This document shows, one piece after another, positions 1 through 32,000 of a stretch of DNA of 32,000 bases. Within the stretch, counting starts at the first letter, position 1. The number at the start of each line of letters is the position of its first letter. Source of the stretch: Candidatus Saccharimonadota bacterium (GTDB taxonomy: Bacteria; Patescibacteriota; Gracilibacteria; Absconditabacterales; Absconditicoccaceae). The notes beneath the pieces are model-generated. The model searched no databases. It was not told the DNA's origin and worked only from the letters and a program-made list of their open reading frames with translations. The stretch is from positions 300,001 through 332,000 of the forward strand of contig JAUIDC010000001.1 in the NCBI GenBank assembly GCA_030429145.1, written 5' to 3'. The position numbers were made by a program, and so were the translations under genes.

Positions 1-82
1 TTCAGCATGCTTCTCTCTAACAGGTAAATAATACGCTTTATCTATACCGAAAACCACCCCTGTATGCAATGCTAACTCACTC

Positions 83-110
83 TTGTATTCTTTTATTTAT
101 TTCGTATACT
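83..110 (+). promoter_or_regulatory. Predicted sigma70-type promoter of the cold-shock gene
   Basis: TTGTAT (83-88), 16-nt spacer, TATACT (105-110), about 50 nt upstream of the ATG at 163. Motif match only. Confidence 0.3.
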
Positions 111-162
111 TGATAGTAAGGAGTTATTATTCTCCAGGTTTATCTATTATACTTATAAGTTA

Positions 163-429
163 ATGCAAGGTACTGTAAAATTCTTCAACGTTACAAAAGG
201 TTTCGGATTCATCACTGACGAATCAAACCAGGATCACTTCATCCACATTTCTAACATCCCTTCAGGAGAAGCTCTTGAAGAAGGACAGGTTGTATCTTTC
301 GAGATCCGCGAAGGTAGAAACGGTAAGATGGAAGCTTACGACGTAACTACTGGTTCTGCTGGTGTAGAAGGAAACGTTGAAATCAACGACGGTTCAGACG
401 ATGATATGTCTGATGACGACGCTGAGTAA
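163..429 (+). CDS. csp: Cold-shock domain protein (CspA family) with acidic C-terminal tail
   Basis: MQGTVKFFNVTKGFGFITDE...DHFIHIS carries RNP1-like KGFGFI and RNP2-like FIHIS motifs. 88 aa, TAA stop, followed by an intrinsic terminator. Confidence 0.9.
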   Translation: MQGTVKFFNVTKGFGFITDESNQDHFIHISNIPSGEALEEGQVVSFEIREGRNGKMEAYDVTTGSAGVEGNVEINDGSDDDMSDDDAE

Positions 430-484
430 TCACGCTCTTAAAAAACTGATTATATACTTCTAGTAAATAAATGCGGTTTTGAAT

Positions 485-510
485 CTCTGTCCTCGGACAG
501 AGGTTTTTTT
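485..510 (+). terminator. Rho-independent terminator after csp
   Basis: Stem CTCTGTC / GACAGAG with a 4-nt loop, followed by G and T7. Confidence 0.7.
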
Positions 511-518
511 GTACAAAA

Positions 519-549
519 AATGCCACAGAACAGATAATTCTGTGGCATT
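519..549 (-). terminator. Hairpin terminator for the minus-strand gene ending at 569
   Basis: AATGCCACAGAA / TTCTGTGGCATT 12-bp stem. The A-run on the plus side is a T-run on the minus strand. Confidence 0.5.
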
Positions 550-568
550 ATGTATCAAGTATTTTGCC

Positions 569-27681: not shown

Positions 27682-27772
27682 ATAAAAAATCCTGACTAAG
27701 TCTCTTTGCTATTCTATCAGCTATTAATGTTCATCATCAGCTTACGCTGACGAGCAGGCTATACCTACTAAA

Positions 27773-27888
27773 GGTGGCATCAATCTACTTTCCCAGGGCC
27801 ATTGACCCAAGTATCATTGACCGGATAAGGCTTAACTTCTGTGTTCGGAACGGGAACAGGTGTTTCCCTCATCCGCATCGATACCACC
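27773..27888 (-). rRNA. rrf: 5S ribosomal RNA
   Basis: RC reads GGTGGTATCGATGCGGATGAGGGAAACACCTGTTCCCGTTCCGAACACAGAAGTTAAGCC...CCTGGGAAAGTAGATTGATGCCACC. The terminal helix closes the molecule. Confidence 0.9.
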
Positions 27889-27946
27889 ATTGGTAGACAT
27901 AACTACTAATCCCATAGTGCAGACAAACATATCATATTTTTAAAAG

Positions 27947-30896
27947 AACAACAAGCCCCTCGATCTATTAGTACACCTCTGCTAAACACATCGCTGTGCT
28001 TACACATAGTGCCTATCAAACCCATAGTCTCTGGGAGATCTTACTCCTACATTGCTGCAGGATGGGCAATCTAATCTTATGGCTAGTTTCCCACTTAGAT
28101 GCTTTCAGCGGTTACCTTTACCGAGTGTAGCTACCCAGCGGTGCCGATGGTTCGACAACTGGTTCACCAGAGACTCGTTCATTCCGGTCCTCTCGTACTA
28201 GGAACGACGCCATTCAAATTGCCTACGGTTACAGTAGATAGGGGCCGAACTGTCTCACGACGTTCTGAACCCAACTCGCGTCCCGCTTTAATGGGCGAAC
28301 AGCCCAACCCTTGGGACCTTCTACAGCCCCAGGATGCGACGAGTCGACATCGAGGTGCCAAACGGAGTCGTCGATATGGACTCTTGGACTCCATTAGCCT
28401 GTTATCCCCGGAGTAGCTTTTATCCGTTGAGCGGATTCCCTTCCACTTGGAAAATCCGGATCACTTTCGCCTAGTTTCCTATCTGTTCGACCTGTTAGTC
28501 TGACAGTTAAGCTTGCTTATGTGAATATACTTTCCATACGGTTTCCATCCGTACTAAGCAAACCTTTGCACGCCTCCGTTACTTTTTAGGAGGCACCCGC
28601 CCCAGGTAAACTGTCCACCAGGCACTGTCCCCCACTTCGTGGGGTTAGTAACGCTACATAAACTGAGTGGTATCTCACTGGTGACTCCACCGTGCCCAAA
28701 GGCCGGCTTCAAAGTCTCCCACTTATACTGAGCAGTCTATGCCACGTTACAATACCTAGCTACAGTGAAGCTTCACAGGGTCTTTCCGTCTAGCTGTAAC
28801 TACCCGGCATTTTTACCGGGATTGTAATTTCACCGAGTCCGAGATTAAGACAGTGTGGAGATGGTTATGCCATTCATGCGGGTCGGAACTTACCCGACAA
28901 GGAATTTCGCTACCTTAGGACCGTCATAGTTACGGCCGTCGTTAACTAGTGCTTAACTCGCGAGCTTGCACAAGCGAGCTTAACATTCTAGCACTGGACA
29001 GGCATCACCTCCTATACATCCACTTACGTGTTAGCAGGAAGCTGTGTTTTTGGTAAACAGTCCCCCCCACGACTTTAACTGCGGCCTGACATTGCTGCCA
29101 GGCAGGGTTTATCCCGAAGTTACACCCGTTAATTTGCCAAGTTCCTTAATCACCGGTTTTCTCGATTGCCTTGGTATACTCTACCTGCCTACGTGTGTCC
29201 GTTCTGGGTACGGGCTGCGTTCAGATTAGCGCTAGTAGGTTTTCTCGGCACCAGAACTATGTAAATTCCACCTTACGGCAGTCTTGGTATAGCTCGACTT
29301 TTTTACTTTGAGCGGATTTGCCTACTCAAAGCGCACCAGCTAATGCTGGATTCGTCTTACTACTACAACTTGAATCCTTATCAAGCTTACACATGTCCCG
29401 ATGCGTCACTACATCACTCTGACGCAGGGGCCGGAATATTAACCGGCTGTCCATCGGTTTCCCCTTTCAGGTATACCTTAGGTCCCGCCTAACCCTACGC
29501 TGATGAACATTGCGTAGGAATCCTTAGGCTTTCGGCATATAAAATTTTCATTTATAGTCGTTACTTATGTCAGCATTTTTACTTCTATACAGTCCACCAT
29601 ACGCTTACGCGACAGCTTCATCCCGTATAGAACACTCTCCTACCGCACAACACTAATGTGTTGGCTTCCGACGTCGGTAGATAACTTGAGCCCCGTTACA
29701 TCTTCGGCGCATTCCCGCTTGTCTAGTGAGCTGTTACGCTTTCTTTAAAGGATTGCTGCTTCTGAGCAAACCTCCTAGATGTCATAGCAGGAAAACATCC
29801 TTTTCCACTTAGTTATCATTTGGGGACCTTAGTCGGGAATCTGGGCTGTTACCCTTTTGGCCATGAAACTTAGCTCCCATAGCCTAACTCCATAACTTTC
29901 CTTACAGCATTCGAAGTTTAACAGGGTTTGGTAAGACCTCTCGATCCCCCTAGCCCTACAAGAGCTCTACCTCTGTAAGATCATCGTTATAGGCTAACCC
30001 TAAAGTTATTTCGGAGAGAACCAGCTATCACGTTATTCGATGAGCTTTTCACTCCTAGGCACAAGTCATCCAAAGGACTTGCAGCTCCAACTGGTTCGGA
30101 CCTCCAGGCTGGTTTCCCAACCCTTCATCCTGCTCATGCCTAGCTCATAACGCTTCGGGTCTAATGACAGCAACTAATCGCCCTATTCAGACTCGCTTTC
30201 GCTCCGGCTCCGGCTGTTACTGCCTTAACCTTGCTACTATCATTAACTCGCTGACCCATTCGTCAATAGGTACGTGGTGACTCGGCCGAAACCGAGCTCC
30301 CACTCAATTGTGAGCTATATATTTCAGGTTCTATTTCACTCCCCTTCCTGGGGTTCTTTTCACCGTTCCCTCACGGTACTATGCACTATCGGTGTAGAAA
30401 AGTATTTAGCCTTACCCAGTGGTCTGGGTGGATTCACACAAGATTTCACGTGTCTCATGCTACTTGGGAGTGCACGACAGAGACAACACATTTTCACTTA
30501 CGGGACTATAACCCCCTCTGGTAACGCTTCTCAACGTTTTCTGTTAACATGTTGTTTTGTAACTCTGCACCGACCTGCTAGGGCCGATATGTACATCCCA
30601 CAACCATCTCTCTCGCAACGGCTAGCACCTTGGCACGAGAGGATTTTGGGCTGTTTCCCGTTCGATCGTCTCTACTGAGGAAATCTCTTACGATTTCTTT
30701 TCTTCGTGGTACTGAGATATTTCACTTCCCACACTTGCCGCCATTTGCATCCTGCTGTACAGGATAGGTTTCCCCATTCGGACATCCCCGGCTGATCACG
30801 GTTACTGGCACCTGACCGAGGCTTTTCGCAGCCAATCACGTCCTTCTTCGGCTTTTCTACCCAAGGCATCCATATATAGCTCTTAATAGACTTGTC
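27947..30896 (-). rRNA. rrl: 23S ribosomal RNA
   Basis: RC 5' region reads ...TATATGGATGCCTTGGGTAGAAAAGCCGAAGAAGGACGTG...CCGAATGGGGAAACC. Sarcin-ricin loop AGTACGAGAGGACCGGAATGAAC lies at 28177-28199. About 2950 nt, so there is no room for large insertions. Ends approximate. Confidence 0.95.
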
Positions 30897-31077
30897 GTCT
30901 TTTAAAAATATGATACGTTTATCTGTTAATGGTCCACATCTGCATCGCTAACATTCTAAAGCATAGAAAAGTCAGACACCCCTATATCTATTGCTAGGTA
31001 GAGAGGCCATCTGACCTTGTTCTCGTTAAAGAAAATCCTACGATTTATCTTGTTAGTTTTCTCGAGCAGTGACTACG

Positions 31078-31105
31078 AGTATAGAGAACCCCACTGCCAT
31101 TTCAA
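31078..31105 (-). promoter_or_regulatory. Predicted sigma70-type promoter of the rRNA operon
   Basis: Minus strand TTGAAA (31100-31105), 16-nt spacer, TATACT (31078-31083), about 180 nt upstream of the 23S 5' end. Confidence 0.35.
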
Positions 31106-31278
31106 GAGATTTTTTGACTTTTTTCATACCACGTAAACAAGCCTCCCACCTAAACGCTCGAGTTTTGACCATACTTTTGTGAAAAAAATGTTGAGAGTTT
31201 TTACTCTGCACCTAGGGTCTTTTCGATGTGAAAATGTTTTTATTGCAATTGCAGCGCGAGTTTATACTCTCACTAACA

Positions 31279-32000
31279 ATGATGACAAAAAAAACAGCCT
31301 TCGTACACGACCGAATAGCACAGGAGTGAGGCGCTGAATCAGTACTCAGACATCTCATCACTCAGGACCGTCACGACGAGTGAACTCTTTTTGTATTCTA
31401 CAGCAAACAGACGCGGCGAAAGGTAAACGACAAAACATACCGCATCGTTACAGCTCTTCCGCGCTGGCTCAACAACTGGTTCATCACCTGCAACACGAGA
31501 AAGTTTTTCCTACTCTCTACGCTATTCGATTATAGAAACCTTATGTTTTGGTTTCCTCTCCTCACTCGAATACTTTCACGCAAGATAAAAAAATACAAAC
31601 CTGATCATATTATTATCTCATCATTTGCTGCTGCAAAAAATATCAATACATCTATCGCACCAACAACGCTCTATCTCCACTCACCGATGCAATACATCTG
31701 GGAGAACTACTACGACAACCTTCATAAACTTCGCTTCCCTATCAAGCAGCTCTATCAGTTTGCTGCACAATATCTGCGTCCTTGGGACAAGAAAAAAAGA
31801 CAGTACAACACCGTTCTCTTCAATAGTGAATACACACAATCTATTGCAGAAAAACTCTATGACATGTCATGAGAAGTACAATATCCGCCGGTCGATAAAG
31901 TGTTCGATGGATGATATTCGCCCGCAGTATGACATCAGTATTTTATTTTTGTATGAAGAGTGGTAAGGTACGTGAGAGAGATAGATAAGATTATTATGTT
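31279..32000 (+). CDS. GT4-family (GT-B) glycosyltransferase, 5' partial (runs off the window)
   Basis: Joins track ORF 31543-31872 to the ATG at 31279 through TGA codons. MMTKKTAFVHDRIAQE-G-GAESVLRHL... is the typical HD..x..GGAE opening, and ...YFIFV-G-RVVRYVREIDKII is the typical F.GR...K motif of the C-terminal Rossmann half. Confidence 0.8.

Follow-up and report, generated by a model that had tools for sequence, protein, structure and literature searches.

The window considered here, a stretch of 32 kb (positions 300,001 to 332,000 of contig JAUIDC010000001.1), raises the question of which genetic code its genes are read in. A preliminary description, made from the letters of the window, had held that UGA is a sense codon for glycine (Gly) throughout and had labelled the code as genetic code 25. 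According to the present analysis, the window very probably uses the code of the SR1/Absconditabacterales bacteria, in which UGA would be decoded as Gly by a tRNA-Gly(UCA), TAA and TAG are the stop codons, and CGA, as well as probably CGG, stands for tryptophan (Trp). The Gly assignment of the preliminary description is borne out by Gly columns in homologues, by the alternation of TGA with GGN codons in 80 relatives and by a Gly-type tRNA(UCA) encoded in the window, and it restores the reading frames; the label of code 25, on the other hand, is insufficient, since CGA is found on Trp columns.

Long frames were recovered with TAA and TAG as sole stops, and gene names rest on Pfam. In a curated set of 35 coding sequences (CDS), delimited by TAA/TAG and with starts picked by homology, 84 in-frame TGA occur among 7,662 codons and are distributed over 20 of the 35 CDS, which agrees with the earlier count of about 80. 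The same set contains 444 GGN codons, so that TGA constitutes 84 of 528 Gly codons, or roughly 16%, and its stop codons are 25 TAA and 9 TAG. All 14 TGA codons that had been cited individually (4160, 4369, 5366, 5321, 5805, 14118, 14064, 19778, 20108-20113, 24406-24411, 24091 and 31327) lie in frame, each at the position and within the peptide described for it. That every re-stitched gene ends in TAA or TAG is true by construction, but the C-termini of S4, S9 and S11 do match the chain ends of their homologues. The systematic fragmentation of standard-code open reading frames (ORFs) is likewise evident: the largest table-11 pieces comprise 117 amino acids (aa) of the 440-aa PilB and 119 aa of the 478-aa RsmF, and in a public code-11 gene call for the same organism S11 is split into 91 + 40 aa and S4 is cut to 148 aa. 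ORF coverage itself was rejected as a test of the reassigned codon; it amounts to 87% with TGA as sense, 85% with TAA, 83% with TAG and 61% with table 11. Because coverage rises similarly for any one stop made sense, the columns of homologous proteins were used for this purpose.

For Pfam matching, TGA was masked as X. Single matches nevertheless span the TGA positions in the S4 N-domain (model positions 1-95/95), S11 (1-105/110), IF-1 (4-64/64), L21 (1-99/99), IF3_C (3-86/86), T2SSE (8-370/370), RsmB-F (2-198/199), RNase_H (4-140/141) and PrsW (34-191/196), and the T2SSF and RecX matches also cross TGA at essentially full model length. Coverage by hidden Markov models (HMMs), which had been proposed as a check on the recoding, is thus regained at full length from S4 to PrsW. 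When the TGA codons are aligned to PDB homologues from standard-code organisms, 19 of 26 columns have a Gly majority and none has a Trp majority (binomial P ~2e-16 for the 19 columns, given a Gly background of 7.5%). A second comparison set consists of 112 non-clade homologues of RNase HI; those that bear a name are Alphaproteobacteria. The RNase HI gene of the window (23950-24468, minus strand) carries five TGA (24409, 24406, 24304, 24091, 23965) and four CGA (24403, 24205, 24190, 24106); the TGA columns show G in 112/112 homologues at 24409 and at 24406 and in 101/112 at 24091, and A 73 / G 37 at 24304. The residues tabulated at TGA, both in the PDB homologues and in RNase HI, are hence those expected of Gly and are neither Trp nor random.

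The same picture emerges within the clade. Relatives were collected by a PilB scan with one genome per species, which yielded 80 loci of 61-86% identity, and 24 genes of the window were compared with them codon by codon. In this table, TGA of the window is paired with the relatives' TGA in 335 cases, GGA in 246, GGT in 114, GGG in 45 and GGC in 33 (Gly background 5.2%), and with the Trp codon TGG at just 2 of ~940 aligned positions. In an 81-sequence clade alignment of PilB, 635 of 728 TGA occurrences fall in Gly-majority columns, the Walker A glycines included. Moreover, when all codons were screened site by site in the manner of Codetta, Gly was returned for TGA at 16/23 conserved sites and Trp for CGA at 4/6; CGC (4 sites) and CGG (1 site) also deviate, though at numbers too small for interpretation, and every other well-sampled codon is standard. 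The PrsW and pilin-like genes were set aside for the column tests, their relatives being too divergent (about 29-50% identity).

A candidate decoder of UGA lies within the window. On the minus strand at 11442-11515, ARAGORN detects a 74-nt tRNA with anticodon UCA, which Rfam assigns to RF00005 with 53.7 bits. The preliminary description makes no mention of this gene. The tRNA adopts a canonical cloverleaf in which the acceptor stem has 7 bp, the anticodon and T stems have 5 bp each and the variable loop has 4-5 nt. Its acceptor stem, GCGGGCA/UGCUCGC, features G1-C72, C2-G71 and G3-C70, followed by the discriminator U73, and these elements constitute the identity set of the bacterial glycyl-tRNA synthetase (GlyRS). 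They are also the criteria by which the tRNA(UCA) of this clade has been classed as a glycine acceptor (Shulgina and Eddy, PMC8629427). In the six closest relatives (PilB 72-86% identical), tRNA(UCA) is identical or differs by 1 nt, and its placement is kept, adjoining tRNA-Tyr and tRNA-Ala. Whole-sequence identity, which is 66% to a relative's tRNA-Gly(UCC) and no better than that to some tRNA(CCG), is not decisive, and for this reason only the identity elements were used. The ARAGORN label of the gene, 'SeC', is derived from the anticodon alone.

In the mechanism proposed, UGA would function as an ordinary Gly codon, which genes of high expression use seldom or never and which is frequent in AT-rich and hypothetical ones. 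It would be read by the dedicated tRNA-Gly(UCA) at 11442-11515, which appears to keep the determinants recognised by GlyRS and, following established knowledge of the clade, would be charged with glycine by this enzyme. Termination would occur at UAA and UAG only; it follows that RF1 would be the sole release factor in use and RF2 lost, leaving no competitor at UGA. In addition, CGA, and probably CGG, would have been taken from arginine (Arg) and be read as Trp, the presumed decoders being Trp-type tRNA(UCG)/(CCG) encoded outside the window. The clade knowledge behind the inferred steps of this scheme is found in PMC8629427, PMC4695839 and PMC8080830.

The reading of CGA and CGG as Trp was predicted for Absconditabacteria by the Codetta screen of Shulgina & Eddy (2021, PMC8629427), a computational prediction, and has been restated for Absconditabacterales (PMC13092985). 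In the curated set, CGA (28) and CGG (6) make up 37 and 8 per 10,000 of the 7,662 codons, close to the published usage in Absconditabacteria of <37 and <7 per 10,000 (PMC8629427), and Arg is mostly encoded by AGA. The clearest case is RNase HI, in which all four CGA fall on Trp columns of the non-clade homologues: W is present in 110/112 sequences at 24403, in 112/112 at 24205 and at 24190, and in 104/112 at 24106, and in the structure alignment CGA coincides with Trp of E. coli RNase HI. The RNase HI peptide formerly given as GNPGQ-TGA-TGA-RGA must hence be corrected to GNPGQGGWGA, its supposed Arg being CGA 24403. Overall, CGA columns aligned to PDB homologues never carry R or K, and show W, F or Y in RNase HI, RsmF and uS9.

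Codon pairing between the window and its relatives leads in the same direction. CGA of the window is paired with TGG 47 times, TAT 26, CGA 24, TAC 10 and TTT 10, whereas AGA is not among its partners; conversely, the relatives' CGA stands opposite TGG of the window in 97 of 161 cases and opposite AGA in 3, and their CGG opposite TGG in 21 of 43. TGG of the window is paired with TGG in 284 cases, CGA in 97 and CGG in 21. As controls, AGA and CGT are paired with AGA, AGG, CGT and AAA, and not with TGG. At individual sites, CGA 20973 in the hypothetical gene at 20637-21815 is opposite TGG in 12/12 relatives and CGA 15761 in the one at 14843-16255 in 10/11; RsmF CGA 19814 meets TGG five times and CGA twice, and RsmF CGA 20087 corresponds to Trp in 2/3 PDB homologues and, among seven aligned relatives, to TGG in four, CGG in two and CGA in one. 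The PilC codon CGA 12912 occupies an aromatic column (TAT 22, TTT 8, TGG 7), and the column of RecX CGG 18328 contains TGG 2, TTT/TTC 4, TAT 1 and AGA 1. CGA 1205 also belongs to the CGA sites of the window with non-Arg behaviour. An apparent conservation of CGA/CGG in ORF 10778-11332 was rejected, as it is due to an overlapping tRNA-Tyr gene. Judged from these alignments, CGA is used as a Trp codon in the window, and CGG probably likewise.

The relatives encode a plausible reader of CGG. At 21 loci (e.g. L035 9196-9268 and L061 9360-9432) a tRNA(CCG) with A1-U72, G73 and U20 is present, which ARAGORN calls 'Arg'. It is located ~1 kb upstream of PilB, a position that lacks tRNA(CCG) in the window and in the six closest relatives. 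The published criteria for a Trp-type tRNA(UCG)/(CCG) are G73 and a base other than A at position 20, with A1-U72 as supportive (PMC8629427). By its sequence, the relatives' tRNA(CCG) is Trp-like and not Arg-like, U20 replacing the arginine identity base A20.

Several observations weigh against the code proposed here. The evidence for both reassignments is comparative throughout. Of the 26 TGA columns aligned to PDB homologues, seven, at variable positions, lack a Gly majority, and TGA is found in variable or Ala/Glu columns at S4 3683, at RsmF 19340, 19943, 20108 and 20210, and at RNase HI 24304. The earlier claim that the cited TGA sit on invariant Gly residues holds for its examples, except that the first TGA of the RsmF tandem (20108) is on Glu in three PDB homologues; this same codon corresponds to GGN in 7/7 clade relatives, and its partner in the tandem (20108-20113) does occupy an invariant Gly. 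With respect to CGA, the codons at RsmF 20381 and at 21309 in a hypothetical gene are paired with Lys in relatives. The 6 CGG of the window are too few for a verdict, with RecX 18328 on the aromatic/Trp column and uL13 1906 on Val, and ARAGORN found no tRNA reading CGA or CGG in the 32-kb window. Furthermore, one CGA of the window (8544), in a fatty-acid desaturase gene, occupies an invariant Arg (R 120/120 homologues).

This desaturase (8064-9188, plus strand; Pfam PF00487) is exceptional in several respects. None of its 20 Gly codons is TGA, and a further CGA, 8652, falls on a Q/K/R column. Its named homologues are from Bacteroidota (~40-46% identity), and its counterpart at the same position of the closest relative is 43% identical, compared with 70-90% for neighbouring genes; its base composition is not unusual. 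Code usage in the relative's desaturase (L002) is mixed, since a CGG falls on a Trp column and two CGR fall on K/R/T columns, and leaves the anomaly in place. The gene may have undergone a recent AGA-to-CGA missense change or have come from a standard-code donor, or CGA may be decoded ambiguously. From this arises the alternative that CGA is not cleanly reassigned in this organism, either because the desaturase is an imported standard-code gene, or because CGA is decoded ambiguously as Trp and Arg, or because its meaning depends on context or on the tRNA pool. We regard this alternative as unlikely. If true, an ambiguous or context-dependent CGA would offer a first concrete handle on an intermediate stage of sense-codon reassignment in bacteria.

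A simpler alternative is plain NCBI table 25, the official code for the clade, in which UGA is Gly and CGA/CGG remain Arg. CGA 8544 and the few CGA sites opposite Lys or Arg codons in relatives would fit this code, but it leaves unexplained why 4/4 CGA of RNase HI fall on Trp residues conserved in 104-112 of 112 standard-code homologues and why, clade-wide, CGA alternates with TGG (97/161) when AGA and CGT alternate with one another. As the screen also gives W at 4/6 CGA sites and the reassignment of CGA/CGG has already been published for Absconditabacteria, table 25 in its unaltered form is improbable.

The assignment of UGA to Trp (table 4), known from Mycoplasma/Spiroplasma and from certain insect symbionts, would restore ORF length equally well, several public pipelines have given relatives 'gcode 4', and table-4 organisms also employ the anticodon UCA. 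Indeed, these systems resemble the present one in the capture of a stop codon by a tRNA(UCA), in a small, AT-leaning genome and, presumably, in the dispensability of RF2. However, with 0/26 PDB-aligned TGA columns having a Trp majority and TGG opposite TGA at 2 of ~940 positions, UGA behaves as Gly here, in an unrelated lineage; Trp columns are filled by TGG and CGA, and tRNA(UCA) carries the Gly elements U73 and G1-C72/C2-G71/G3-C70 as opposed to the Trp set of G73 and A1-U72. Table 4 is accordingly highly implausible for the window.

Hardly any credence can be given to the view that the TGA codons are real stops, be it in pseudogenes, through errors of sequencing or assembly, or with occasional read-through. 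The genes do look broken under table 11, but TGA is present in the essential single-copy genes of S4, S11, IF-1, L21 and IF-3, in-frame homology extends to either side of TGA over the full HMM length, TGA or GGN occupies the same columns in 80 independent assemblies, TAA and TAG never occur inside homologous spans, and a matching tRNA(UCA) is encoded in the window. Finally, selenocysteine, suggested by the ARAGORN name 'tRNA-SeC', has a practically negligible probability, since that name stems from the anticodon only, the 74-nt tRNA(UCA) lacks the long-armed Sec fold and is placed by Rfam in the ordinary tRNA family and not in that of Sec tRNAs, which belongs to the same clan, and 84 UGA in ribosomal and housekeeping genes lie on Gly columns and not on Cys/Sec.

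The code proposed above, with UGA as Gly and CGA as Trp, can be followed through the individual genes. Among the translation genes, all on the minus strand, uS4 (3587-4204) contains two TGA, of which 4160 is on Gly in 3/3 PDB species and 3683 is on E/D in PDB homologues and GGN in the nearest relative. The single TGA of uS11 (4246-4644; 4369) and of bL21 (5511-5831; 5805) are on Gly in 4/4 PDB alignments each, and those of IF-1 (5252-5518), 5366 and 5321, in 3/4 and 4/4, respectively. IF-3 (6848-7558) has eight TGA, six in an N-terminal extension and two in IF3_C; Pfam matches cover IF3_N (1-70/70) as well as IF3_C (3-86/86), and the TGA of the C-domain are opposite GGN or TGA in relatives. 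The N-terminal extension (7373-7520, minus strand) comprises ~70 aa of low complexity, rich in Gly, Pro, Arg and Gln, and aligns poorly in relatives.

PilB, the T2SSE ATPase (13491-14813, minus), contains six TGA (14460, 14118, 14064, 13707, 13698, 13593), and Gly is found at all six positions in 3/3 PDB structures of PilB. In PilC (T2SSF; 12360-13466, minus; Pfam), which has three TGA and the one CGA at 12912, TGA columns of the relatives are composed of G 53 + TGA 18 and of G 44 + TGA 27. RecX (18013-18453, minus; Pfam) carries three TGA, whose columns contain solely G or TGA in eight relatives, and one CGG (18328). The RsmF gene (19187-20623, plus; Pfam) has ten TGA and five CGA; TGA 19604, 19673, 19778, 19892 and 20111 are on Gly in PDB homologues. 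The PrsW-family membrane protease (24644-25453, plus; Pfam; relatives 29% identical) contains eight TGA, four CGA and one CGG.

Further TGA are contributed by hypothetical and pilin-like genes. Five occur in a continuous TAA/TAG-delimited frame at 9329-9733 (minus) and seven, versus two GGN, in the gene at 9860-10675 (plus; 31% G+C), both belonging to no Pfam family. A hypothetical gene conserved in 35 relatives (11571-12332, minus) has three TGA, and its column 132 is made up of TGA 14 / G 8 / S 7. One TGA each is present in the hypothetical genes at 10775-11056 and 16286-17866 (both minus) and three are present in that at 20637-21815 (minus), in addition to four in the pilin-like gene at 18596-19141 (plus) and five in that at 22719-23417 (minus); in this group (16286-23417 and 10775-11056), conserved columns in relatives are mostly G/TGA.

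The GT4 glycosyltransferase gene, which extends past the window (31279-31998, plus), has six TGA, three CGA and one CGG. Its fragment yielded no match in a PDB search, and its columns, drawn from 120 homologues that are mostly clade members, are confounded by database entries translated variously with code 4, 11 or 25. They contain G 64 + W 37 at TGA 31327, G 85 + W 32 at TGA 31954 and R 60 + W 34 at CGA 31312. The W in the TGA columns would represent TGA codons of the relatives themselves, rendered with code 4, and one homologue is in fact labelled 'gcode 4'.

TGA is used very unevenly across the window. It is entirely absent from RpoA, uS9, uL13, bL17, uS13, bL20, bL35, bL36, ClpP and the cold-shock protein, and TGA-free stretches include 2537-3532, 1193-2494, 4694-5068 and 21921-22529. 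On the contrary, TGA outnumbers GGN in the AT-rich hypothetical gene at 9860-10675 (7 vs 2) and in GT4 (6 vs 2). This distribution may reflect counter-selection of UGA in genes with high expression.

The window derives from the chromosome of a bacterium belonging to SR1/Absconditabacterales (Patescibacteria, or candidate phyla radiation), as follows from the names of its PilB relatives and from its rRNA order. Informatively named relatives are SR1/Absconditabacterales, among them RAAC1_SR1_1, human oral taxon HOT-345 and several metagenome-assembled genomes designated 'Candidatus Absconditabacterales'. The G+C content is 40.8% over the 32 kb, and the minus strand carries all three rRNA and all six tRNA genes detected with Rfam and ARAGORN. 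The rRNA genes (26196-30897, minus; Rfam) are arranged in the order 23S (30897-27947), 5S (27888-27772) and 16S (27686-26196), separated by very short spacers (58 and 85 nt), and the same order recurs in a more distant relative (L083, 4731-9468, minus; 16S 89.5% identical). Since this operon order has been seen only in SR1 genomes (Camanocha and Dewhirst 2014, PMC4192840), it serves as an independent marker of the lineage.

Both reassignments are already in the literature, and the window adds one more genome to a clade in which the phenomenon was known. The SR1/Gracilibacteria code, table 25, is credited to Campbell et al. (2013, PNAS) and Rinke et al. (2013, Nature), as cited in PMC8629427 and PMC4695839, and Vampirococcus provides a further reference (PMC8080830). 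The window shares with this system UGA on Gly columns, a tRNA(UCA) with Gly acceptor identity, TAA/TAG stops, the SR1/Absconditabacterales lineage, a G+C content of ~41% and the 23S-5S-16S order, so that the match to the recoding of Gracilibacteria and SR1/Absconditabacteria, asserted in the preliminary description, is supported by the Gly columns, the tRNA, the SR1 relatives and the rRNA order; it differs in that the table keeps CGA/CGG as Arg, whereas CGA of the window stands at Trp positions. The extended code predicted for Absconditabacteria is approached more closely, as CGA alternates with TGG and occupies invariant Trp positions, both CGA and CGG are scarce and near the published ranges, Arg is mostly AGA, and relatives possess a Trp-like tRNA(CCG), although the desaturase has one CGA at an invariant Arg and the sampling of CGG is poor. 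With selenocysteine recoding the system has in common the use of UGA as sense via an anticodon-UCA tRNA, but that recoding is site-specific, depends on a selenocysteine insertion sequence (SECIS) and involves a long tRNA, whereas here it would be global and context-free, with a canonical 74-nt tRNA.

The importance of these findings lies mainly in annotation. The standard code fragments 20 of the 35 genes in the curated set, and code 4, applied to relatives by several public pipelines, puts Trp in place of Gly. Table 25, in turn, would mistranslate up to 34 codons of the window (28 CGA and 6 CGG) as Arg, because CGA, and probably CGG, would mean Trp; invariant RNase HI residues are among them. 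Public clade proteins show mixed G/W columns at TGA and R/W columns at CGA, one of them being labelled 'gcode 4', and many deposited translations of the clade appear to be wrong at these residues. With regard to UGA as Gly nothing new is added, and the window contributes clean, independent single-locus support for the unconfirmed prediction of CGA as Trp; RNase HI constitutes a clean test locus in this respect, and the window supplies specific peptides for metaproteomics.

The remaining gene content comprises a ribosomal cluster of the rpoA side (uS9, uL13, bL17, RpoA, uS4, uS11, uS13, bL36 and IF-1), further translation genes (bL21 and an IF-3/bL35/bL20 cluster) and the fatty-acid desaturase, RecX, RsmF, ClpP, RNase HI, PrsW-family protease and GT4 glycosyltransferase genes. 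A type IV pilus-like block at 12360-23417 includes PilB, PilC and three proteins with N-terminal methylation motifs, and also holds two large conserved proteins that have no Pfam match (14843-16255 and 16286-17866). Such a block would fit a clade whose lifestyle has been described as episymbiotic or predatory.

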